A stretch of 64,000 bases of DNA from Candidatus Latescibacterota bacterium (GTDB lineage Bacteria; Latescibacterota; UBA2968; UBA8231). The position numbers were made by a program, and so were the translations under genes. The notes beneath the pieces are model-generated. The model had not been told where the DNA came from and did not search any database. It saw nothing but the letters and a program-made list of their open reading frames with translations. The DNA is taken from positions 1,792,001 to 1,856,000 of the forward strand of contig CBDCXV010000010.1 in assembly GCA_965223905.1 (NCBI GenBank), given 5' to 3'. Positions 16,108 through 29,059 of this stretch are shown here, piece by piece; the first letter of the stretch is position 1, and each line of letters opens with the position of its first letter.

Positions 16108-16635
16108 ATGTGCGAAGCGCGAAAATACCGGCCGCTGAGCGGCGAAGCCGACGGGGGACCCCGGTCTCCGTCGAACCTGGTCTCCCGGCCGCGATTGCTC
16201 GAAATCAGGCGCCAGCTGCGCGCCGCCGGAAAAAAGGTGGTCTTCACCAACGGCTGCTTCGACCTGCTGCACCGGGGCCACGTCGAATACCTGCGCGAGG
16301 CGCGCACTCTCGGCGACGTCCTGATGGTCGGCCTCAACAGCGACAGCAGCGCCGCCGCCCTTAAAGGGCCCGGACGCCCCCTCATGCCCCAGCAGGACCG
16401 CGCCGCCCTGCTGTGCGAGCTGAGATCGGTCTCCTACGTCTGCATCTTCGACGAGCCGAGCGTCGCCGCGCTCGTCGCCGAGCTCCTGCCGGACGTGCTC
16501 GTCAAAGGGGGCGACTATTCCCTCGCAGAGGTCGTAGGCCGCGAGGTCGTCGAGGAAGCGGGCGGCACCGTCCGCACCCTGTCCCTTTGGACCGGCGCCT
16601 CCTCGTCGGATCTGGCGCGGCGTCTGAAGCTGTAA
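16108..16635 (+). CDS. rfaE2: D-glycero-beta-D-manno-heptose 1-phosphate adenylyltransferase
   Basis: VVFTNGCFDLLHRGHVEYL, VGLNSDSS, KGPGRP, PDVLVKGGDY. Confidence 0.93.
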   Translation: MCEARKYRPLSGEADGGPRSPSNLVSRPRLLEIRRQLRAAGKKVVFTNGCFDLLHRGHVEYLREARTLGDVLMVGLNSDSSAAALKGPGRPLMPQQDRAALLCELRSVSYVCIFDEPSVAALVAELLPDVLVKGGDYSLAEVVGREVVEEAGGTVRTLSLWTGASSSDLARRLKL

Positions 16636-16819
16636 GGGGCTCGACTGGCCGGGCGGACCGGACTCGCTCCAGTTCCTGCGCGCAGCCCCCCGCCTCCTTC
16701 CCCTGCCGACCGCCGGCAGGCATCCCACCGGAACGGACGCACAAAATCTGCTGAGCGGAGGTCGGCGGGGGCATGTTATCTTTGGCAAGTGGGTCCGGAG
16801 AAGCATCCCGCTTCCGTCC

Positions 16820-19800
16820 TTGATGAAATCATCCTTCCCTGAAAACTGGCTCGCATTCCTGGTGCACCGCGGCGCGGCGCGCGCCTTGCCGGCCGCCCTG
16901 TTGTGGTCCGCTCTGTCCGCCCCCCCGGCATGGACGCAGAAGCTGCAGGATTCCCAGCTCGAGCTGCCGGGGGTGTGGGCCGGCAAGGCCGCCTGGGGAG
17001 ACTACGACGGCGACGGCGACCCGGATCTCCTCCTCGTCGGCGAAACCGAGTCCGGCGGGCAGTGCCTGAGGATCGCCCGGGTACTTCGCAACGACGCCGG
17101 GCTCCTCGCAGAGGACGTCGCCCAGTCACAGCGGCTTGTCGGGGTCTATTTCGGAGACGCCGGGTGGGCGGACTACGATGGGGACGGCGATCTCGATGCC
17201 GCCGTCGCCGGCTGGGATGCGGACGACCTCGGCAGTCTGCGGCTCTACACCAATGACGCCGGGCCGGAGGAAGGGGAGCGTCTGCTGACCCCGGACATGA
17301 CCCAGGTGGACGACGCAGGGAACCCGAATTTCCGGGGTGTCCGCTACGCCGATCTCTCCTGGACCGACTTCGACCGCGACGGCGACCTCGACCTCACCGT
17401 CACCGGGCTGGAAGGCAACGGCACCTCCCTCACCCACCTGTACCGGAACCGCGACGGCCTGCTGATCCTCGACGAGGCCAACAGCGAGGCCCTCGTCAAC
17501 GTGCACAACGGCGACCTCGCCTGGGCGGACTACGACAACGACGGCGACCTCGACCTCGCCCTGTCCGGGGAGAACGTCATCTCCGACAACGTCACCCGCA
17601 TCACCGAGTTCTACAGGAACGATCCCGTCGGCGACCTCGAGCTCGACGTCAGCGTTGCGGCGGCGCCCCGGGTCAAGGGAGGATCGCTGGCCTGGGCGGA
17701 CTACGACAACGACGGGAACCTCGATCTGGCGCTTTCCGGCCGCGGCGATTCGTGGGCGGTGAAGCTGCTGCTATACCGCAACCGGCCGGCGGGCACCCTC
17801 GGGCTCGACGACGGGTTTTCCCTCAATCCTTTCCAGACCGTCGACGGGCAGCTCGCCTGGGTCGACTACGACAACGACGGCGACCAGGACCTCGCCGTGT
17901 CGGGCCGCACCCTGCTGTCCGACCACCGCACCCAGGTGTTCGACAACGACGGCGGAACGGTGACTTCCGGGGCGGTCGAGAACCTCGAGGGCCTCGCCGG
18001 GGGCACCGCGGTATGGGGCGACTACGACGGCGACGGCCGCGTCGACCTGCTGCTGAGCGGGGTCGATCAGTCGGGCGAGCGGCGCACCGTTCTCTACGGC
18101 AACCGGGGCGTCGCCACCCCCAACCGCGATCCATCCGCTCCCGCGACGCTCAACCCGGTGCAGGTTACCAGCACCCGCGCCCTGTTCAGCTGGCCGGCGG
18201 GGGAGGACGTCGAGTCGCAGGCACTCTCCTACAACCTCCGCATCGGCACCCGGCCGGGAGGCGGCGACGTGCTCTCCGGCAGCCTGCCGCCGGGGCCGGG
18301 CAACGCCGGGCTGAGGACCAGCTACGTCCTCGAGCGCTCGCTGCCCCCGAACCGCTATTACTGGTCCGTGCAGGCGGTCGACGGAGGTTTCGCGCGCTCG
18401 CCCTTCTCCACCGAGGGCAGCTTTGTCGTCGAGGATCTCGTCTCCTCGGACCAGAGTCTGCGCAATCTCGAGGAAGCGTCGATGTCCTGGGGCGACATCG
18501 ACGACGACGGGGACGCCGACCTCGCAGTCATGGGGAGAAACCGCAGCGGCGAAGCCCGCACCTTGGTCTACGTCAACGAAGCCGGCGAGCTGCGGCCGAA
18601 CCTCGGGGCGGGAATCACTCCGCTGCGCAACGGCGACCTGGCCTGGGGGGATTACGACAACGACGGCGACCTCGATCTCGTCGTCACCGGCCAGGACGGC
18701 TTCGGGACCCCCCACAGCGAGCTGTTCGCTACCGATGTACTCGGCGGGGAGGTGAGTTTCGAGCGCGCCGGCGCCTTCCCGGATCTCTCTCTCAGCTCCG
18801 CCGACTGGGGAGACGCCGACAGTGACGGCGACCTCGACCTGGTGTTGATGGGCCTGGGCAGCGACATCGACGGCGCGACCCGGTCGCACACCCAGCTGTG
18901 GCTAAACGACGGCGAAGGCGGCTTCGCCGAGGCGCAGAAAGACCTCGTCGGATTGCACGACGGCGAGGCGGCGTGGGCGGACGCCGACGGCGACGGTGAT
19001 TCCGACCTCGCGGTGACCGGAACCAGTTCCGCGGGCACCCCGGAGCTGCGGCTCTACCTCAACGACGGCTCCGGTCCGGGCATGGTCATGCTGTCCCTGA
19101 CCGGGCTCGAGTCGAGCGACCTTGCCTGGGGGGACTGGGACCGCGACGGCGACCCCGATCTGCTCGCTGCCGGGATCGGGGATGGCGGGATGGCGGCGAC
19201 GCTCTGGGAGAACGACGGCGGCAGCTTCACGGAGGCCGCGGGCGCAGGCCTGCCCGGCATTCGCGACGGCGACCTCGCCTGGGGGGACTACGACAACGAC
19301 CAAGACCTCGACGTCGTCATCGCCGGCAACGACGGGTCGCAGGCGATCCTGCAGATATGGGAGAACACCATCGACCGCACCGGCGCCGGAGGGCCGTTCG
19401 AGCAGGTCGCCCTGGAGGCGCTCCAGGGTGTTCAACTCAGCGCCGCGGCTTTCGCCGATATCGAGGAAGACGGCGACCTCGACCTGGTCTCCGCCGGCCG
19501 CGGCGCCACCGGCTCTCCCCTGAGCGCCATCAACGAGAACCTCACCGCCCGGTTCAACCCCAACTTCCCCCCGCGCAACCCATCCGGGCTCGAGGCGGAC
19601 GACGACTCCGGCGGGGTTGTCCTGAGCTGGCAGGCCTCCGGGGATGACGGCGCCCCTCCACCGGAGAGCCTGACCTACAACCTGCGGGTCGGGACCACCT
19701 CGCGGGGAAACGAGGTGATTTCCGGCCTCGGGGAGGTGGGCCCCGGAAACAACGGTCACCGGACCGAGCGCACCCTCGTCCGCCTTGAAAGCGGCACCTA

Positions 19801-22800
19801 CTTCTGGTCGATCCAGGCGGTGGACGCCGGATTCGCCCGTTCCGGGTGGAGCCCCGAGCGGCGATTCGTCATGGATGCCATGCCCCCCGTTCTCGGCGCT
19901 CACAGTACCAGCCGGCAGCTGGTGGGTCTGGATCAGACCATCACCCTGGCCCTGGAGTTTATTGACGAGCACTCCGGCATCGATGCTTCGACGGCGCCCA
20001 CCGTGCAGGCCGCGGTCGGCTCGGTTACCCTCGACTTCGAGCAGGTGCAGTTCACCGGCGGCACCTGGAGCGGCGAGCTGACTATCGCCGCGGGCGTGCC
20101 CTCCGGCACGGCGACGATCTCCGTGCGCGGAGTGCTCGACGGCAAGGGGAACGAGTTGATTCCCGTCGATCTCGCCGATGCGTTCGAGGTGGACGCGGTT
20201 GCCCCCGAGGCCGTCGCCTTCGAACCGGCCTCCGGTGCCGGGAAGGTTCCGGTTTCCACGTCCGTGCTGATGGTCCGGTTCTCCGAGCCGATCGACGAGA
20301 CGACCGTCGATGAACGGAGTTTTTCACTCCGCTCGGGCGAGTCGGCGACGACTCCGCTGGCGGCCACGTACGACCCGGAGACCCACGTCGCCGTGCTGAC
20401 CCCGGAGGGTGGCCTGCTTCCGGGTACGCTGTACACGGTCGAGGTCTCCGCTTCCGTTCGGGACCTGGCCGGCAACCGGCTCGCCGACACCATGAGCTGG
20501 AGCTTCAGCACCGCGGTGCCTCAGCTGCTGGAGACCAACCCTGCCGACGGGGCCGAGGGCGTCCATCCCGCCACGGAAAGCATCGTCGCCGTCTTCGACG
20601 GCCCGCTGACGGCCGGCGCCCTCGACGCGCCCGGAGCGGTGCAGGTCCTGCGCGAGGGGGAGCCCCTCGACCTCGCCGAAGCGCCGATGTTCGACCCCGA
20701 CGACAACTCCCTTTCCATTGCGCTCGCGGGGGGCCTTGAGCCCGGAAGCCGCTACGAGGTCATCCTCGACGGCTCCCTCGCCGGTCCGCTGCGACTGCTC
20801 GGCCAGGGAGACTTCCGCTGGAGCTTCGCCACCGCGGTTCCGCAACTGCTGGAGACCAGCCCTGCCGACGGGGCCGAGGGCGTCGATCCCGCCACGGAGC
20901 GGATCACCGCCGTCTTCGACGGCCCCCTGGCGGCCAGCGCCCTCGATGCGCCCGGAACGGTGCAGGTCCTGAGCGAAGAAGACCCGCTCGACCTCGCCGA
21001 AACGCCGTTGTTCGACGCCGAGGGCAACTCCCTCTCCTTCGCGGTCGCCGGGGGTCTCGTGCCCGCAAGCCGCTACGAAGTCATCCTCGACGGCTCCCTC
21101 GCAGGTCCGCTGCGCCTTCTCGACCAGGGAGACTTCCGCTGGAGCTTCACGACCGCGGCGCCACAGCTGCTGGAGACCCGTCCGACCGACGGGGAAACAG
21201 GCGTCGGTGTCGACCTCGCCGAGGCGACCGTGACCTTCAGCGTCTCCCTGGACCCGGACCAGATTACCCGCGACAACTTCCGGCTCCTGCGGGAAGGAGA
21301 GCCGGTGGCGCTTCGCTCCGGGGACCCGGCCGAGCGCGATCCCGGCACCTATGCGCTGGCCCCCGAGGCAGGGTGGCAGGTCGGCAGCTCCTACAGCGTC
21401 GAGATCGCCACGGACGTCACCGGGCAGCTGTCCGGTAGCGGGCCGATCTCGTGGAATTTCCAGACCGCAGTCCCGGTGGCGACGGGGCTCAATCCGGCAG
21501 CCGGCGACGACGCCGTTGCCACCGCCACCCGCGAGATAACAGCGGTATTCGACAACCCGATCGACGAAGCCGCCCTTAGCGCCGAGGGGGGGGGGCGCCT
21601 GCTTCTGGAGGGAAGCCCGGAGGCACTCGAGGAGCCTTCCTGGGACCCCGGAACGCGAACGGTGACCCTTACCCCTGCGACGGGCCTCAGGGCGGGTTCG
21701 GCCTACACGGTAATCCTGTCCGCGGCGATCGCCGGGCCGCGGGCGGGCGCGGAGACGCGGTGGAGCTTCAGCACGGTCGTCCCTTCCGTGGCCTCGACCG
21801 ATCCCGCGGACGGCGCTTCGATCGCCGCGGGGAGGCGCCGCGTCGAGGTCCTGTTCACCGCCCCGATCGACGCCGGCCTGGTGATGAATTCGCGCAACTT
21901 CCGACTCGGCAGGTCGGGGCAGCCGCTGCAGCTCGACGACGGCGACTTCCTCTACGACGAGGCCGCCAACAAGGTCAACCTGCCGGAGGTCGATTTCCTT
22001 TCCGGCAGCTCCTACGAGGCCGCGGTCCTGCCCCGGGTGCGGGGGCCGCGCGGGGCCGATGCCGGGCCGTTCACCTGGAGCTTCAACACCGACCTGCCCG
22101 CGGTGGTGGCGACGTCCCCGCAGGCCGATGCCGAAGGGGTGTCGATCACCACCGAGGAGATCCGCATCGAGTTCTCGCTTCCCGTCGCGGTGCGGGACGG
22201 ACGCGGGTTCACCCTGCTGGCGCGGCAGCTCGAAGAGGTGCCTGGGGGCGAAGAGGCGGGGTTCGAGGTGACGGCTATCACCGGCTTCGCCATCGACTCC
22301 GGTTTCAAGGTGGTCAGCTTCGCGCCCCGGGGAGGGCTACGGCCGTTCACGGAATACCGGGTCAGCGTCGGCCCCGAAGTTTTCGGCGAGCTCGCCGACC
22401 GCGGCTTCGAGTTCGCGTTTCGCACCGCCCCGCGGCTGACCGAGACGGCCAGCGGCGGCCTGCTCGCGACCGCGGACCGCAGGCTCGAGCTCTACCTGCC
22501 CCCCAATGCCCTCGCCGGCGGCAGCGGTGAGATCGCCATCCGGCGGCTGGCGGACGCCGGCGCCGAGGACGCCCGTTCCCGGGACCTCACCCCTGTCGGG
22601 CAGGCCTTCGAAATCGACGCCGGCGACGGGGTTCTGCGCAAACCGGGGACCCTGACCCTGCGCTACGAAGCCGGCGATGTCGAGGGACGCGACACCTCGC
22701 GCCTGGCGATTTTCCGCCTCGTCGACGGCGAATGGACGCGGGTCGGCGGCACTTCCGTCCCCGCCGAGCGGGAAGTGCGGACCTCGGTCGAGGACTTCGG

Positions 22801-23152
22801 GACCTACGGCATCTTCGAAGACCTCACCGCGACTGCCGGGGCCGCGGCCATCGACGGCATCGACTGCCAGCCGCGCGCCTTCGCCCCTGCCGGAGGAAGC
22901 GGGGCGCTGCGCGACAAGACCGACATCTCGTTCGACCTGGCCGCGGCTGCCGACGTAACCGTCCGCGTGTACAACGCTTCCGGGCGCCTCGAGCGGGTGA
23001 TCGCCCGCGACCGGCCGATGGCCCCCGGGCGCCAGTCGCTGACCTGGAACGGCCGGGACAAGGAGGGCAAGGTGGTCGCCAGCGGCCTTTACGTCGTCGT
23101 CGTCAGCGGCGGCGACATGCAGTCGGAAAAAATCGTGGCGGTGGTGCGATGA
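16820..23152 (+). CDS. Giant secreted surface protein: 2x(FG-GAP propeller + FN3), several Ig-like (Big_5/SbsA-type) domains, ZU5-like domain, FlgD-like C-terminal domain
   Basis: Signal peptide; about 14 W[GA]DYD[NG]DGDxD repeats; LSYNLRIGT..YYWSVQAVD twice; P.DGA.GV...F..P...L.PGS.Y.V...W.F.T units; VRVYNASGRL...WNGRDKEGKVVASGLY tail. Confidence 0.88.
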   Translation: MMKSSFPENWLAFLVHRGAARALPAALLWSALSAPPAWTQKLQDSQLELPGVWAGKAAWGDYDGDGDPDLLLVGETESGGQCLRIARVLRNDAGLLAEDVAQSQRLVGVYFGDAGWADYDGDGDLDAAVAGWDADDLGSLRLYTNDAGPEEGERLLTPDMTQVDDAGNPNFRGVRYADLSWTDFDRDGDLDLTVTGLEGNGTSLTHLYRNRDGLLILDEANSEALVNVHNGDLAWADYDNDGDLDLALSGENVISDNVTRITEFYRNDPVGDLELDVSVAAAPRVKGGSLAWADYDNDGNLDLALSGRGDSWAVKLLLYRNRPAGTLGLDDGFSLNPFQTVDGQLAWVDYDNDGDQDLAVSGRTLLSDHRTQVFDNDGGTVTSGAVENLEGLAGGTAVWGDYDGDGRVDLLLSGVDQSGERRTVLYGNRGVATPNRDPSAPATLNPVQVTSTRALFSWPAGEDVESQALSYNLRIGTRPGGGDVLSGSLPPGPGNAGLRTSYVLERSLPPNRYYWSVQAVDGGFARSPFSTEGSFVVEDLVSSDQSLRNLEEASMSWGDIDDDGDADLAVMGRNRSGEARTLVYVNEAGELRPNLGAGITPLRNGDLAWGDYDNDGDLDLVVTGQDGFGTPHSELFATDVLGGEVSFERAGAFPDLSLSSADWGDADSDGDLDLVLMGLGSDIDGATRSHTQLWLNDGEGGFAEAQKDLVGLHDGEAAWADADGDGDSDLAVTGTSSAGTPELRLYLNDGSGPGMVMLSLTGLESSDLAWGDWDRDGDPDLLAAGIGDGGMAATLWENDGGSFTEAAGAGLPGIRDGDLAWGDYDNDQDLDVVIAGNDGSQAILQIWENTIDRTGAGGPFEQVALEALQGVQLSAAAFADIEEDGDLDLVSAGRGATGSPLSAINENLTARFNPNFPPRNPSGLEADDDSGGVVLSWQASGDDGAPPPESLTYNLRVGTTSRGNEVISGLGEVGPGNNGHRTERTLVRLESGTYFWSIQAVDAGFARSGWSPERRFVMDAMPPVLGAHSTSRQLVGLDQTITLALEFIDEHSGIDASTAPTVQAAVGSVTLDFEQVQFTGGTWSGELTIAAGVPSGTATISVRGVLDGKGNELIPVDLADAFEVDAVAPEAVAFEPASGAGKVPVSTSVLMVRFSEPIDETTVDERSFSLRSGESATTPLAATYDPETHVAVLTPEGGLLPGTLYTVEVSASVRDLAGNRLADTMSWSFSTAVPQLLETNPADGAEGVHPATESIVAVFDGPLTAGALDAPGAVQVLREGEPLDLAEAPMFDPDDNSLSIALAGGLEPGSRYEVILDGSLAGPLRLLGQGDFRWSFATAVPQLLETSPADGAEGVDPATERITAVFDGPLAASALDAPGTVQVLSEEDPLDLAETPLFDAEGNSLSFAVAGGLVPASRYEVILDGSLAGPLRLLDQGDFRWSFTTAAPQLLETRPTDGETGVGVDLAEATVTFSVSLDPDQITRDNFRLLREGEPVALRSGDPAERDPGTYALAPEAGWQVGSSYSVEIATDVTGQLSGSGPISWNFQTAVPVATGLNPAAGDDAVATATREITAVFDNPIDEAALSAEGGGRLLLEGSPEALEEPSWDPGTRTVTLTPATGLRAGSAYTVILSAAIAGPRAGAETRWSFSTVVPSVASTDPADGASIAAGRRRVEVLFTAPIDAGLVMNSRNFRLGRSGQPLQLDDGDFLYDEAANKVNLPEVDFLSGSSYEAAVLPRVRGPRGADAGPFTWSFNTDLPAVVATSPQADAEGVSITTEEIRIEFSLPVAVRDGRGFTLLARQLEEVPGGEEAGFEVTAITGFAIDSGFKVVSFAPRGGLRPFTEYRVSVGPEVFGELADRGFEFAFRTAPRLTETASGGLLATADRRLELYLPPNALAGGSGEIAIRRLADAGAEDARSRDLTPVGQAFEIDAGDGVLRKPGTLTLRYEAGDVEGRDTSRLAIFRLVDGEWTRVGGTSVPAEREVRTSVEDFGTYGIFEDLTATAGAAAIDGIDCQPRAFAPAGGSGALRDKTDISFDLAAAADVTVRVYNASGRLERVIARDRPMAPGRQSLTWNGRDKEGKVVASGLYVVVVSGGDMQSEKIVAVVR
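20498..21195 (+). repeat. 321-bp (107-aa) tandem Ig-domain duplication, 2 copies plus start of a third
   Basis: TGGAGCTTC..ACCGCG..CAGCTGCTGGAGACC at 20498, 20819 and 21140 with high nucleotide similarity between the first two units. Confidence 0.92.
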
Positions 23153-24585
23153 GCGCGGCGGCCCGGGGGATCCTTGCGGCGCTCTTGATGGCGGCGGTGT
23201 CGCCCGCATCGGGGCAGACCTTCACCAACGTCACCGAAGCGAGCGGCGCGGTCGGCTTCCGCGGTACTACCGGTGCCTGGGGGGATTTCGACGGCGACGG
23301 CGACCTCGACCTCTACGTCGCCAACCGCGGGGCCGCCAACGCCCTGTTGGCGAACAACGGCGACGACACCTTCGCCGACGTCGCCGCGGCTGCTGGAGTC
23401 GACGAGGACGGCGACAGCGTCGCGGCCGCCTGGGCAGATTTCGACAACGACGGCGACCTCGACCTCTACGTCGCCGACTTCTTCGCCCAGGACTTCCTCT
23501 ACGAGAACTCCGGCGGCAGCTTCTCCGAGGTCGGCAGGGCCCGCGCAATGGTCGACCTCACCAGGCGCGGGAGCGTGACCTCGGCGGCCTGGGGGGACTA
23601 CGACACCGACGGGTACCTCGATCTCTACATCGGCAAGTTCTACCACGCCAACGAGCTCTACCGCAACGACGCCGGCAGCCTGGAGCCGACCACCGGCCTG
23701 GGGACCGGGGACCAGCGCGACACCGGCGGGCTGACCTGGGTCGACTACGACAACGACGGCGACATCGACCTCTACACCGTCAACCGCGAGCAGGAGAACG
23801 GCCTCTTCCGCAACGACCTCGACGCCGGCGGCGAGTTCGCGGCGATCGCCTGCGCGGCGACGGTGGACAACACCGAGATCGGCCAGACCGGCGCCTGGGG
23901 GGATTTCGACAACGACGGCGACCTCGACCTGCACCTCGCCAACGTCGGCGCAAACAACCTGTACCGCAACGACGGGGAGGACCGATTCAGCGACGTCGCC
24001 GCCGCCGCCGGAGTGCGCAGCAGCGGCTCCGGGTTCCTCACCGCCATGTCGGCATGGCTCGACTTCGACGGCGACGGCCACCTCGACCTCTTCCTCGCCA
24101 ACGGCGCCGAGCTGGAGCTGCCAGACGTACTCTTCGCCAACAACGGAGACGGCACCTTCCGCGACGCTACGGCGGAAGCCGGGCTGCCGACAATCGGCTC
24201 CTCCCACCTGTCGGTCAGCCGGGGGGACATCGACGGCGACGGGGCTCCCGATCTCTACCTCACCAACGGCGCGGCCCTGGGGAACCGTCTGTTCCGGAAC
24301 GCCACCGGAGGCTCTGCGTTCATCAAGGTGCACGTGCGCGGCAAGGGCCCCGGCGCCGGCGGCATCAACTTCTTCGGGCTCGGGGCGCAGGTCCGCCTTT
24401 TCGACGCCGTCACCGACACGCTGGTCTCCTTCACCCAGATGCTGCCCGGCCCCGGGGCTCCGGAAGTGATCTTCGGGGCCCCTGCAGGGCCCTACAACGT
24501 CCAGGTCCGCTTCCCGGGAAACGAGGTCCCGATGATCGTCGGCAACGTGCGTGGCGGCGACAGCATCACCATCGAGGAGCCGTAG
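23149..24585 (+). CDS. Secreted FG-GAP/VCBS repeat protein (CRTAC1-like)
   Basis: ATGA overlap; signal peptide ASG-Q; seven W.D[FY]D.DGD.DLY repeats; short ASPIC-like tail. Confidence 0.88.
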   Translation: MSAAARGILAALLMAAVSPASGQTFTNVTEASGAVGFRGTTGAWGDFDGDGDLDLYVANRGAANALLANNGDDTFADVAAAAGVDEDGDSVAAAWADFDNDGDLDLYVADFFAQDFLYENSGGSFSEVGRARAMVDLTRRGSVTSAAWGDYDTDGYLDLYIGKFYHANELYRNDAGSLEPTTGLGTGDQRDTGGLTWVDYDNDGDIDLYTVNREQENGLFRNDLDAGGEFAAIACAATVDNTEIGQTGAWGDFDNDGDLDLHLANVGANNLYRNDGEDRFSDVAAAAGVRSSGSGFLTAMSAWLDFDGDGHLDLFLANGAELELPDVLFANNGDGTFRDATAEAGLPTIGSSHLSVSRGDIDGDGAPDLYLTNGAALGNRLFRNATGGSAFIKVHVRGKGPGAGGINFFGLGAQVRLFDAVTDTLVSFTQMLPGPGAPEVIFGAPAGPYNVQVRFPGNEVPMIVGNVRGGDSITIEEP

Positions 24586-26975
24586 TGGCCGCGGCAATGA
24601 CATGGTCAGAGCGGCTGGCTGCCGCGGCCGCGGCTCTCTGCCTGTTGTGCGCCCCCCTGTACGGGGCGGCATCCAGGCAGCCCGACATCGGAGTGCGCGC
24701 CATTTCCATGGGCGGCGCCTTCGTCGCCGCGGCCAGCGACGCCACCGCGATCCACTGGAACCCCGCGGCTATCGCCACCCTGCAGCGCCAGCAGGTCAGA
24801 CTCTCCTACGCCGACCGCTTCGGTCTGGGCCTGCGCGAATCCTACCTGTCTTACGTGCTGCCTCTCACCGAGAGCCACGCCTTCGGGGCCGACTGGTTCC
24901 ACCGCGGTTTCGACGACGTCGAGGGTGGACTCGGACTCGAGGCGAGCCAGAACCGCTTCGGCTTCGCCTACGGGTACCGCAACGACATCGAGCGGCGGCG
25001 CTACATCGGCGACAGCGCCGTCGGCGTGACGGCTCGCTACATCGGCCAGAGGGCCAGCCTCGACGGCGCCACGGCGATGGACGCGAGCGGCTTCGGCTTC
25101 GACGCCGGTCTGCTGATCCCCGTGACCGCGGGTCTGAGCTTCGGGCTTGCCGTCCAGGATATCGGCGGCACCGCGGTCGAGCACGAGAGCGGCTTCAGGG
25201 AGGACATACTGTCCACCCACCTGCGCCTAGGCTTCGCCTACAAACCCCCGCTGGGGGGACTGACGCTGGCGGCCGACCTCGACGACCACTTCCGCGCTGG
25301 CGCCGAGTACTGGGTCAGCCGGCAGCTGGCGCTGCGCGCCGGCCTGAAGTCCGAGATAGAGACCCCGGAAAGCCGCGGACAGGCGACCTCCATCAACGCG
25401 GGATTCGGCCTGAAAAACCGCTACGTGCAGCTCGATTACGCCTACGAGAACCCCCCCGTCCTCGGCGCGACCCACTACGTCTCCGTGGCGCTTGAGTACG
25501 ACCCGAACGCCGTCGGCATCAAGGATGCGGGCATTCGTCCGAGACCGGTCTTCCGCTCGCTGTACCGGCACTACCGGGAGACCGACTTCTTCGAGGTCGT
25601 GCTCTCCAACTCCGCCTCCGAGCCGATAACCGTCATCGTCGCGCTGATGCTTCCCAAGGCGATGGCCGCGGCGCACACCGAGAAGATCGAGCTGCCGCCG
25701 CAGAGCACGGAGAAATACCGCTTCGAGGCGGACTTCGACGAGGAGCTCTTCAACAGGCCGGAGGCTTATTTCGACAACTACGTCACCCCGGTCGTGCGGG
25801 TGCGCTACACCCGCCACGAACAGAACTACCTGGTCGAAAAACGGCTCGAGCGCGTCTACCTCGCCGGCAAGGGGAAGCTGAGCTGGAACGTCGAAGGGAT
25901 GGCGGCAGCCTTCGTCACCCCTGCCGACATCGCCGTCGCCGCGGTGGCGCGTGGCCTTGTACAGCGCTACCGCGAACTGCTGGCCGGCAAGTTCAACCAC
26001 TCGAACATCGGCATGGCCGCGGTGCTGTTCGACGCCATGGGCGCCTACGGGATCCGCTACGAGGCCAACCCCGAGACGCCGTTCGCCAACGTCTCCGAGG
26101 ACCGCACGATCTTCGACACCATGCAGTACCCGAGCGAGCTGCTCAACCTTCCCGAAGGCGGCGGTACCGGCGACTGCGACGACCTCACCGTACTCTACGC
26201 GTCGCTGCTGGAAAACCTGGGGATCGACACCGCCTTTCTCGAAAGCAGCGAGCCGGGCAGGGGCCGCATCTACCTGATGTTCGACAGCGGCGTCCTTCCC
26301 GAAGAAGTCGGGGATCACTTCGTCAGCCGCGCCGAATACGTCGAGTGGGAGGGCCGCATCTGGATCCCGGTGGAGACGACGATGCTCGGATCGACCTTCA
26401 GCGAGGCCTGGGAAACGGGGGCTGCCCAGTACAAGCGGCTCAAGGTGCGCGACCTGATCTCGGAGACCTACGTGGCCAGGTGGATGCAGACCTACAAACC
26501 CGCGGTGCTGGCCCCGGTCGCCCCCGAGCTGCCCGCGAAAGCGGCTGTCTCCCGGCTGCTCTCCCGCGACACGGCCTCCTTCGACAAGCGCGCCGACCGG
26601 ATCGTCCTCGGGTCGGTCTCCTCACTCGGCAACCCGGAGGGGGCCTACGAAGCCGGCGTCGCCTACATGCGCGCCAACCACCTCGAGAAGGCGGTGCAGA
26701 TGTTCGACCGCGTCCTGGAAATGAAGCCGGACCACGAGGATGCTCTCAACGCCAAGGGGGTCGCGCTGACCAAACAGGGCCGCTACGACGAGGCGCTCGC
26801 CCTTTTCCGCGAGGCCCTCGAAATCGCCGACAGGCCCGCGGTGCGCATGAACGTCGCCATCGCCTACTATCTCAAGGGAGAGCGGGAGACCGCGTCCATG
26901 ATATTCGACGAGGTGGTGCAGCTCGACGACTCCTACCGCGAGCTGTTCGAGTTCCTCGGAGGAGCCGGGTTTTGA
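24585..26975 (+). CDS. PorV/PorQ(FadL)-like beta-barrel fused to a beta-sandwich, transglutaminase-like domain and TPRs
   Basis: GAGGAG RBS, TAG/GTG overlap; GVRAISMGGAFVAAASDATAIHWNPA; QLDYAY; QYPSELL..GDCDDLTVLYASLLE.LGI; WIPVETT; C-terminal TPRs. Confidence 0.82.
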   Translation: MAAAMTWSERLAAAAAALCLLCAPLYGAASRQPDIGVRAISMGGAFVAAASDATAIHWNPAAIATLQRQQVRLSYADRFGLGLRESYLSYVLPLTESHAFGADWFHRGFDDVEGGLGLEASQNRFGFAYGYRNDIERRRYIGDSAVGVTARYIGQRASLDGATAMDASGFGFDAGLLIPVTAGLSFGLAVQDIGGTAVEHESGFREDILSTHLRLGFAYKPPLGGLTLAADLDDHFRAGAEYWVSRQLALRAGLKSEIETPESRGQATSINAGFGLKNRYVQLDYAYENPPVLGATHYVSVALEYDPNAVGIKDAGIRPRPVFRSLYRHYRETDFFEVVLSNSASEPITVIVALMLPKAMAAAHTEKIELPPQSTEKYRFEADFDEELFNRPEAYFDNYVTPVVRVRYTRHEQNYLVEKRLERVYLAGKGKLSWNVEGMAAAFVTPADIAVAAVARGLVQRYRELLAGKFNHSNIGMAAVLFDAMGAYGIRYEANPETPFANVSEDRTIFDTMQYPSELLNLPEGGGTGDCDDLTVLYASLLENLGIDTAFLESSEPGRGRIYLMFDSGVLPEEVGDHFVSRAEYVEWEGRIWIPVETTMLGSTFSEAWETGAAQYKRLKVRDLISETYVARWMQTYKPAVLAPVAPELPAKAAVSRLLSRDTASFDKRADRIVLGSVSSLGNPEGAYEAGVAYMRANHLEKAVQMFDRVLEMKPDHEDALNAKGVALTKQGRYDEALALFREALEIADRPAVRMNVAIAYYLKGERETASMIFDEVVQLDDSYRELFEFLGGAGF

Positions 26976-27075
26976 CCGGAGGTAGTACAAAATCGCGATC
27001 CGCCGCCGCGTCCGGCGGTTCGCCGCCCCCGCTGCAGGCCGCTTTCAGCGGCAGCCGAAAGAGAGGAAGCGATTC

Positions 27076-27618
27076 GTGAAATCCGCGCCGTGGTTCTTCT
27101 GCTTCGCCCTGGCACTTCTGACCGGGCCGGCAGCGCTCGCCGCGGAACAGCCTTCCGGCGGCGAGAAGCGAACTCCCCTGCGGCCGCGGCCGCAGGTCTC
27201 CGGGACCGTGAGTATCGACGAGGAATGGCTCCACGCGATCTGGACCCAGGTCGACGAGATAGTGAAGGAGGAACGCAGGCTCAAAAAAACGGTCTCGAGC
27301 GCTGGGGTTCCCCCCGCCAGGCAGGAGATCGGTCTGCTCGACAGGCTGTTTTTCCGGGGCGCGAAACGGTACCCGGGACGGGAAGAGATTCGCCGGGCGA
27401 TCGCCGTCCTCGAGGAAGCGGTCGCGACGAATCCGAAGAGCGAGGGCGCTCCGAGGCGGATATACCTCATCGCCCAGTGCTACCAGGTACTGGGCCGCCT
27501 GGTCGAGGCAAACGGCCTCTACACCCGGCTGACCCGGGATCATCCCGGAACTCCCTGGGCCTCCAAGGCGTCAAGGGCACTGGCGAAGCTGGCCGAAGCG
27601 GGCAGAGCGATCAGGTAG
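27076..27618 (+). CDS. Exported protein with C-terminal TPR
   Basis: Signal peptide ALA-A; YLIAQCYQVLG..A..Y..L..DHPGTPWA. Confidence 0.65.
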   Translation: MKSAPWFFCFALALLTGPAALAAEQPSGGEKRTPLRPRPQVSGTVSIDEEWLHAIWTQVDEIVKEERRLKKTVSSAGVPPARQEIGLLDRLFFRGAKRYPGREEIRRAIAVLEEAVATNPKSEGAPRRIYLIAQCYQVLGRLVEANGLYTRLTRDHPGTPWASKASRALAKLAEAGRAIR

Positions 27619-27752
27619 GGACGTCCGCCCCGGCCTCACCGTTTGCTTTATATTTTTCCCGAGTTCGAGTTCCACATTCACGCAGTCAGCGGCAGCGATT
27701 TCGGGGAGACCGGACCGAAGCCGTCCTTCGCGCCGAAAGCACGGATATACAC

Positions 27753-28442
27753 ATGATCAGACTCACCGACCGGTGTCCAACCCGGTCTTTTCTCCTCCTC
27801 GCCGTTGCCGCGCTTTGCGCCTGTGCCGCCCCGGGCAGCGAAATGTCGCAGCGCATGGAGACCTCCGACGCCGAGATACGCGAGGAGATCGAGGCGCTGA
27901 AACGGGCGGTCGAATCTTCCTACGACCGCGAAAGGGCGCTCGCCGAGCGCCTGCAGAGGCTCGAGGAGGGGTACGCACGGTTGGAGTCCCCGCCCGAAGG
28001 GCGGACCGACTACCCAGTCACCACGGAACCGAAACCGGTTCCTGTAGTCCCGGGCAGCGAAAATTTCGATGTCCAGGGCGCCTACGACCGGGCCTACCAG
28101 CTCTACGGCGACCTCCAGTACGAAGCGGCGCTCGCCGGCTTTGGCGAAATCGTCTCGCGGGCTGCGAACAGCGAATGGAGCGACAACGCCCGCTACTGGA
28201 TGGGGGAGTGCCAGTACGGCCTGGGGGAATACCGCCTGGCGCTGGCCGAATTCACCAAGGTCTTCAGCTATATGGAGACCGAGAAAGCCGACGACGCCCA
28301 GCTCAAGATCGCCCGCTGCTACCTGGCCCTCGGGGAGAAGGAGAACGCCCTGAGCGCCTTCCGGAAACTCCTGGACGAATACCCGGACAGTGAGTACATC
28401 GGGGCCGCCAGCAAGGAAATGAGGTACCTCGAGGGCCCGTGA
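27753..28442 (+). CDS. Tol-Pal system CpoB/YbgF-like TPR lipoprotein
   Basis: Lipobox, coiled coil, YDRAY..Y..A..F, DNARYWMGE, KADDAQLKIARCY, LLDEYPDS. Confidence 0.8.
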   Translation: MIRLTDRCPTRSFLLLAVAALCACAAPGSEMSQRMETSDAEIREEIEALKRAVESSYDRERALAERLQRLEEGYARLESPPEGRTDYPVTTEPKPVPVVPGSENFDVQGAYDRAYQLYGDLQYEAALAGFGEIVSRAANSEWSDNARYWMGECQYGLGEYRLALAEFTKVFSYMETEKADDAQLKIARCYLALGEKENALSAFRKLLDEYPDSEYIGAASKEMRYLEGP

Positions 28443-29059
28443 ACATCGCATCCCTCTTGTTGCTGGCCGGGGCCTGGCTAGTCGCTCCGGGCGTCGATAT
28501 CGCCGCGGCGACCTACATTCCCACCAACATCGATCTGGCGGTCCAGGCAGCCGATGAAGCCGTGGCCGAATGCCTGTCAGGCCTCGACTCCCTTCACTCG
28601 GAGACCGACTGGGAACTCCCGGTCCTAGTGACGGCGCAGTCGGAACACGACGCCAACTGGGTCGTCGAACACTGTCTGACAGGGGAACTGCTCGAGCGGA
28701 ACTTCACCGTCGCGGTCGACACCTCGGCAGCGGCCCCGGAATCGCCCCTTCTCTCCTACCGGATCGTCGACCTCAGCCTCTCGGGCTGGTCCGGACTCCG
28801 CGGGGGCGAGGTATGGCGCCGCTGCCGGATAACCCTCGGCCTGCGCCTGGTCTCCGGCGGGGAGCTGGTCTGGCAGCACGAGGCGACCTCCCAGATTCGC
28901 GACTCCATACCGAAGAACCGTCTGGAAGTGCTGGAAAACGCAACCTACGATTTCGCCGACCTGGAGCTCGAAGAGCGCAACTGGGGACGCTTCGTCGAAC
29001 CGGCCATCGTCTCCAGCGTTCTCGGCACCCTCGTCTACCTGTTCTTCTCCAATCGCTGA
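28439..29059 (+). CDS. Hypothetical exported protein with C-terminal TM helix
   Basis: Overlaps both neighbours (GTGA, TGATG); signal peptide; EPAIVSSVLGTLVYLFFSNR end. Confidence 0.75.
   Translation: MNIASLLLLAGAWLVAPGVDIAAATYIPTNIDLAVQAADEAVAECLSGLDSLHSETDWELPVLVTAQSEHDANWVVEHCLTGELLERNFTVAVDTSAAAPESPLLSYRIVDLSLSGWSGLRGGEVWRRCRITLGLRLVSGGELVWQHEATSQIRDSIPKNRLEVLENATYDFADLELEERNWGRFVEPAIVSSVLGTLVYLFFSNR

Follow-up and report, generated by a model that had tools for sequence, protein, structure and literature searches.

To our knowledge, the outer-membrane barrels in type IX secretion systems (T9SS) are described as shuttles and anchors and not as transducers of signals. PorV has been modelled to bind the C-terminal domains (CTDs) of cargo proteins by its extracellular loops, and a cognate anchor has a precedent in PorQ, which holds uncut PorZ (accessible part of PMC10202324). 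Flavobacterium johnsoniae has type B operons of cargo, PorP/SprF and PorE, described as operons with cognate shuttles in the available text of PMC12618676. In Sinorhizobium, the outer-membrane beta-barrel NsrA is needed to activate the inner-membrane CHASE2 cyclases CyaK, CyaD1 and CyaD2 (accessible parts of PMC7529298 and PMC13001267). The Treponema FadL-like proteins TP0548, TP0859 and TP0865 have a 14-strand barrel and a helical C-terminal part of tetratricopeptide repeats (TPRs) that is assigned to the periplasm (accessible part of PMC8407342). Here, we analyse a gene of a Candidatus Latescibacterota bacterium that joins a PorV-family barrel to an enzyme-like domain and TPRs. The window is a stretch of 64,000 nucleotides (GenBank assembly GCA_965223905.1, contig CBDCXV010000010.1, positions 1,792,001 to 1,856,000), and positions are counted from its first letter. 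Our preferred reading, with a probability of roughly 55%, is that the fusion belongs, as the outer-membrane component, to a conserved cassette of five genes that in relatives likely forms a trans-envelope signalling relay, and that in this genome, where a conserved His and the cyclase are lost, it is likely an anchor only, for the giant neighbour.

The fusion is a single open reading frame (ORF) of 796 codons with these features:

24585..26975, forward strand: fusion gene, with a signal peptide (by inspection), a PorV-family barrel, an immunoglobulin (Ig)-like domain, a transglutaminase/LapG-fold domain (predicted) and TPRs
24669..25499, forward strand: hatch and 14-strand barrel of the PorV/FadL type, from the hidden Markov model (HMM), the structure model and Foldseek; last strand predicted to end in the periplasm
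25506..25868, forward strand: Ig-like beta domain, from the model; it travels with the enzyme domain in 111 of 146 representatives
25869..26504, forward strand: transglutaminase/LapG-fold domain, from the predicted fold of a homologue; of 98 columns that the family conserves, 13 are altered in the window
26175..26177, forward strand: Cys531 (TGC), predicted nucleophile, found in 121 of 121 aligned sequences
26265..26267, forward strand: Arg561 (CGC), at the family's conserved His position
26373..26375, forward strand: Glu597, presumed third triad residue, found in 119 of 120 sequences
26634..26963, forward strand: short TPR region; close His-bearing relatives are about 220 amino acids longer here

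Residues 37-303 match the NCBIfam model PorV_fam (NF033709) with 104.6 bits against a cut-off of 90, and the protein is thus a member of this family. It does not reach the equivalog cut-offs of PorV (NF033710, 45.8 against 250) or PorQ (35 against 220), the barrel does not pass the FadL Pfam model, and PorU (NF033707) is not among the best 25 of 27 NCBIfam families shown for the fusion. Pfam places TPRs at residues ~684-790, and the motifs GDCDD and WIPVETT are at residues 529 and 593. In the AlphaFold model (predicted local distance difference test, pLDDT, 89.7; 112-sequence alignment) a hatch is followed by 14 barrel strands (69-305), an Ig-like beta domain (310-427), an alpha/beta domain (428-638) and TPR helices (684-793). 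With the whole chain as query, Foldseek ranks first (E 2.3e-9) chain F of 6h3i, a T9SS translocon entry; we take this chain to be PorV, and FadL/TodX structures occupy ranks 2-25. The first-pass annotation, which proposed one ORF joining a PorV/FadL signature to a cysteine-enzyme domain and TPRs, thus agrees with the HMM match, the motif positions, the AlphaFold model and Foldseek. The parsing of the model also bears out a barrel at the N-terminus; the Ig-like domain (residues ~310-427) was absent from that description.

In FadL-type barrels, the hatch enters from the periplasm. With an even number of strands, strand 14 should therefore end in the periplasm, and the Ig, enzyme and TPR domains, ~490 residues after the barrel, are accordingly predicted to hang there. 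In the model, even strands are mostly followed by short turns, and the long loops come mostly after odd strands. As the loops of PorV are modelled to bind CTDs on the outside, a periplasmic enzyme would be on the wrong side for a sortase role. In this genome, moreover, a PorU over cut-off immediately precedes the best PorV-family match, and SprA is over cut-off too. PorU is over cut-off in 25 of 41 genomes, including this one, and the idea of the fusion as a PorU substitute was rejected on this ground. The T9SS of this genome may have a divergent motor or none, as profile searches with GldM and GldN gave zero matches, with the control searches also giving none.

Only barrels and TPRs are among the whole-chain Foldseek rows shown, and the enzyme domain was therefore folded separately, from the His-bearing homologue L022 (pLDDT 94). 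The VIA Z-scores of this domain are 10.5 to 3kd4_B (root-mean-square deviation 3.1, 137 aligned), 9.1 to TG2 and 8.7 to LapG (3.6, 142 aligned), and the LapG chain of 4u65 is its sole Foldseek match under E 0.001 (E 2.2e-4). DUF553 is over cut-off in the homologue L072. By its modelled fold, the domain belongs to the transglutaminase-like cysteine enzyme superfamily. The BTLCP Pfam family gave no match at E 1, and a PDB sequence search with the middle region of the fusion found nothing (best E 1.3).

The intact family has a presumed Cys-His-acid triad, present in 79 of 80 loci, that is broken in the window's protein by Arg561, a change unremarked in the first-pass annotation. The His is found in 116 of 120 aligned sequences; it is replaced in the protein of the window and in the three sequences most closely related to it (Arg, Arg, Arg, Gly). 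Among the genome loci it is kept in 79 of 80, the exception being L021, 94% identical to the window's protein. In a quick tree of 36 selected rows, the five His-less sequences form one nested clade with support 100, so that the loss is derived. A sequencing error was rejected as the explanation, since Arg is also found in P0004, P0006 and L021, and Gly in P0005; contigs from other studies' runs cover codon 561, with no other letter listed. Judged from its sequence, the fusion in this genome is most likely a pseudo-enzyme. The shortened TPR region was rejected as a marker of decay, since the His-bearing L067, L071, L072, L077 and L080 are also short.

The neighbouring genes place the fusion in a cassette, with the following features in the window:

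16820..23152, forward strand: giant cargo gene, 2110 amino acids, start TTG at 16820 or ATG at 16823, with FG-GAP, fn3, seven Big_5 Ig domains and a C-terminal domain of FlgD_ig type
22838..23152, forward strand: CTD of the giant protein, of a subtype private to the cassette
23149..24585, forward strand: FG-GAP protein, 478 amino acids, FG-GAP repeats only, CTD not detected
27076..27618, forward strand: small TPR protein with an N-terminal signal-like segment, where the motif AGVRG reads AGVPP (from 27301)
27619..27752, no strand: 134-bp spacer, where close relatives have a ~930-codon CHASE2-class III cyclase gene

Overlaps of ATGA (23149-23152) and TAGTG (24583-24587) join the first three genes, as had been noted before. 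The fourth gene, 27076-27618, is conserved and was not remarked on earlier. Locus counts refer to the best 80 of 144 confirmed loci. Fusion loci are found in three phyla (Latescibacterota or Gemmatimonadetes, KSB1 and Marinimicrobia). A gene with the same CTD subtype lies upstream in 67 of the 67 loci with enough DNA; the remaining 13 of 80 have at most 1.23 kb upstream. The small TPR gene follows the fusion in 69 of 80 loci, ten being cut by contig ends and one (L029) lacking it, and 68 of the 69 small proteins contain AGVRG; L021 reads AGVPP like the window. Clustering of ORFs across the loci also revealed a ~930-residue protein with CHASE2 and a class III cyclase domain, which 63 of the 80 loci contain; contig ends truncate another 15, and true local absence is seen in L021 and L029. 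In Latescibacterota and KSB1 this gene follows the small gene, in Marinimicrobia-type loci it precedes the giant gene, and the metagenome loci show the same two orders. The catalytic motifs typical of class III are kept in the cyclase consensus, with a Lys of the adenine type, and the membrane cyclase is predicted to make cyclic AMP (cAMP). The 478-residue FG-GAP protein was not found beside the fusion in Marinimicrobia-type loci.

The same pattern holds across genomes. Of 41 genomes, 21 contain the full fusion, and these same 21 also contain the small protein; the CTD subtype is found in 20 of these 21 (G030 missed) and in none of the 20 others. A cyclase orthologue is present in 19 of the 21, missing only from the two His-to-Arg genomes, the window's (G000) and G002. 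These counts are descriptive, as the genomes are kin and adjacent genes can go in one deletion. From this co-occurrence the barrel is predicted to be a cognate holder, of the PorV/PorQ type, for the CTD of the giant protein at the cell surface. In four one- or two-contig genomes (G004, G012, G019, G020), homologues of the flanking genes (16150-16632 and 28439-29056) are less than 1.1 kb apart, i.e. the whole cassette is missing at the site.

In one derived clade, His561, the AGVRG motif and the cyclase have decayed together. We counted changes at those columns for which close intact loci show at least 95% conservation. In the window, the small protein differs at 19 of 47 columns (40%, intact maximum 11.5%) and the enzyme domain at 13 of 98 (13%, intact maximum 5%). 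The CTD region (22430-23149; 0 of 45, 0%) and the FG-GAP protein (2 of 82, 2.4%) are within the intact range, as are BamD, NadD, CpoB and ThrC. Between the window and L021, the ratio of nonsynonymous to synonymous changes (dN/dS, from few changes) is lowest in the barrel (0.084), followed by the cargo genes (0.20-0.21), the enzyme domain (0.225) and the small protein (0.32); the enzyme domain has values of 0.008-0.10 in five intact pairs, also from small counts. Between the small gene and cpoB there are 134 bp, bridged by contigs of other studies' runs. The genome gave no PF00211 or PF05226 match while the controls were found (completeness 93.6%), and the linked CHASE2-class III cyclase, as in NsrA-type signalling, is not found in it. 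In G001, of the same genus, window positions 16632-27468 are lost and the end of the small gene is joined to cpoB, with no cyclase. This remnant fits a loss of the cyclase first and the rest later.

Class III cyclic-nucleotide signalling looks largely lost in the three same-genus genomes G000, G001 and G002, which gave zero matches to the cyclase query at E 1e-8; G000 has one cyclic-nucleotide-binding domain match. An RNA-library run with a sponge metagenome label contains short contigs near-identical to window positions 25685-26834, in the fusion gene, and 27681-28184, in the region of cpoB, which is not proof of transcription.

Under the preferred reading of an anchor joined to a relay, the barrel of intact systems would hand a changed state of the cargo on to the enzyme with its Cys-His-Glu. 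This enzyme would then cleave (or acylate) the small protein in the periplasm, at or close to the V-A-G-V-R-G loop, and the inner-membrane CHASE2 cyclase would be switched by the product, with a change in cAMP. Of these steps, the outside-in direction and the substrate are the least certain. In the window's genome, the pseudo-enzyme would keep anchoring the giant cargo, with the signalling half gone. That the cyclase changes side of the cassette between lineages yet stays within it argues for the relay. The pathway in its full form, where a giant propeller/Ig sensor secreted by the T9SS docks on its own barrel and a LapG-fold protease cuts an AGVRG messenger that acts on the CHASE2 adenylate cyclase, outside-in and in uncultured phyla related to the Fibrobacteres-Chlorobi-Bacteroidetes group, is a tentative proposal that we rather doubt as a whole.

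Several observations weigh against the relay. The enzyme module is used without a barrel, which is present in only 27 of 146 new representatives of the module, and at 13 non-barrel enzyme loci neither the small gene nor the cyclase is nearby. Distant barrel paralogues (L116-L118, L190, L194, L199) keep the CTD gene, with no cyclase seen in the fetched DNA, some of it short. L029 keeps the His, with neither small gene nor cyclase within 10 kb downstream, and L192 and L193 keep His and cyclase but have VAVAARR in place of VAGVRG. The enzyme thus has uses outside the relay, and not all systems have the motif. In the window, the barrel too is changed in excess (8 of 81 columns, intact maximum 4.9%), and the dN/dS of the enzyme domain, above that of the barrel, is yet equal to that of the cargo genes and below 1. 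Finally, the losses are one series of events in one clade and therefore cannot tell whether AGVRG serves the enzyme or CHASE2.

The fold of the enzyme suggests an inside-out alternative similar to the Lap system. Here the periplasmic domain of the cyclase and the small protein would restrain the enzyme, which when freed would cut a tether and release the giant protein; the window's lineage would then have locked its cargo on. This explanation expects an identical pattern of joint decay, and it fits both the LapG chain of 4u65 as top Foldseek match of the enzyme domain (LapG Z 8.7) and the D-C-D motif, which parallels the calcium site D316-C317-E318 of DvhG (accessible part of PMC13090378). We find it unlikely, however, since CTD-held cargo is expected on extracellular loops (PMC10202324, in the part available), where an enzyme in the periplasm could not reach it, since the domain content marks the partner as a cyclase, an output enzyme and not a cyclic di-GMP (c-di-GMP) receptor, and since AGVRG was found in no long cassette ORF. 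Likewise unlikely is an enzyme that acts on the envelope (peptidoglycan or lipoprotein) and tethers cargo and barrel as PorE does for PorP/SprF, with the small protein and the cyclase as regulators only. In its favour, type B operons carry genes for a cargo, its cognate shuttle and PorE as cell-wall anchor (available text of PMC12618676), TgpA and pseudomurein endopeptidases are in the fold family, 28-29 of 80 loci continue with cpoB- and bamD-like genes and the enzyme module sits on many other scaffolds. An anchoring activity should, however, persist with cargo and barrel, yet the His was lost together with the cyclase; profile scans of the fusion also detected no peptidoglycan-binding domain.

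It is quite improbable that the barrel, in the manner of FadL, imports a small hydrophobic ligand or serves as its receptor, and that this ligand is then deacylated or transferred by the periplasmic enzyme, with the giant protein only aiding capture. The FadL/TodX structures at Foldseek ranks 2-25 and the N-acetyltransferases among the neighbours of the enzyme fold would fit, but the barrel passes PorV_fam and not the FadL Pfam model, its best structural match is a T9SS translocon chain and the private CTD subtype tracks it. The earlier proposal of a dedicated single-chain shuttle with a processing or cross-linking unit divides into two parts. A barrel dedicated to its neighbour is supported by the giant CTD gene upstream in all testable loci and by the distribution of the CTD subtype. 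A sortase-like activity that cleaves or cross-links the neighbour's CTD is not supported, and we regard it as very improbable. It could draw on the co-occurrence of barrel and CTD subtype and on the Cys-His-Glu conserved in relatives, but the enzyme is predicted to be periplasmic with a transglutaminase/LapG-like fold, the genome has a separate PorU-PorV locus, and the His was lost while cargo and CTD are intact; the losses in the enzyme track the AGVRG protein and the CHASE2 cyclase, not the cargo.

Some further observations concern the cargo and the enzyme module. Just before the CTD of the giant protein lies a conserved domain of ~140 residues (22430-22849) without a Pfam match, which presumably resembles a ZU5-like sandwich. 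An autoproteolytic motif of the HFS type was looked for in this domain and not seen, and Pfam gave no match. The genome has 154 ORFs ending in a CTD-like domain and 14 PorV-family matches, six of these within ~1.6 kb downstream of a CTD-ending ORF (random background 2.3% within 2.5 kb); FlgD-type CTD cargo with a cognate barrel of the PorV type may be widespread in the phylum. Eleven Marinimicrobia-type loci (within L079-L099) have a PilO-like and a secretin gene immediately upstream of the giant gene, which may point to a connection with type IV pili. The enzyme module is matched by 1942 clusters at 50% identity, a large family without a good Pfam model. A Pfam scan of 47 of the 146 representatives, mostly non-barrel, found fusions with Reg_prop/Y_Y_Y, NHL, ankyrin and STAND domains. 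The Ig-enzyme-TPR module (P0131-P0268) is fused to Reg_prop/Y_Y_Y propellers, NHL propellers and ankyrins, and also to nSTAND2 (P0250) and to TIR-nSTAND1 (P0235, where Ser replaces Cys). Such fusions suggest a use as effector in signalling or conflict systems.

We found no description of the fusion or the cassette in the literature (titles and abstract openings, with subscription journals mostly outside the search), and the available parts of PMC12611786, PMC8195603, PMC8407342 and 10.1101/2025.01.14.632903 do not describe them. If the full pathway is true, it would be proteolytic outside-in surface sensing built on the T9SS, a mirror image of Lap, and the window's genus would show it being dismantled stepwise. 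The cassette supplies candidate parts for a relay from a barrel to CHASE2, i.e. cargo, barrel-enzyme, peptide motif and cyclase. The window's lineage would be a natural knockout with the anchoring half kept and the signalling half lost, so that the cassette offers a specific candidate pair of enzyme and substrate together with a ready negative control.

Compared with PorV and PorQ, the fusion is alike in its PorV_fam match, its hatch and 14 strands and its best structural match in a translocon entry, and its genome has SprA, PorU and the 154 CTD-like-ending ORFs. It differs by falling below both equivalog cut-offs, by the ~490 additional residues of predicted periplasmic domains and by being tied to one cargo operon. 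The Treponema FadL-like proteins, as far as the available text goes, share the 14-strand barrel and the periplasmic C-terminal TPR extension; an Ig domain, an enzyme domain, a CTD cargo and a cyclase are not described in it. Like the type B operons, in the available description, the cassette has a cargo gene beside its own barrel and a periplasmic partner; unlike them, it has a FlgD_ig-type CTD, a PorV-type barrel, a fused thiol-enzyme fold and a cyclase. The path from a barrel to a CHASE2 cyclase resembles that of NsrA, compared by description and not by homology, while the accessible parts of those papers do not describe a fused thiol enzyme, a small relay protein or a self-encoded secreted ligand.

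With LapG/LapD/LapA, the cassette shares the transglutaminase-like fold, the D-C-acid motif, the predicted periplasmic location, a giant surface protein and an inner-membrane signalling partner. The T-V-A-G of the small protein resembles the LapG site [T/A/P]AA[G/V] (accessible part of 10.1101/198937), and the D-C-D of the enzyme the DvhG calcium site (PMC13090378, in the part available), both as resemblances only. In contrast to Lap, the enzyme is fused to an outer-membrane barrel, the cargo is of the T9SS and not of the type I secretion system (T1SS) type, and the third residue is apparently Glu (the BTLCP triad is C-H-D). The place of the partner is taken by a CHASE2 cyclase, a small separate protein carries the motif and the BTLCP Pfam family is unmatched. 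The fusion and its cassette thus combine known kinds of parts, a T9SS barrel, a thiol-enzyme fold and a CHASE2 cyclase, in a new variant.

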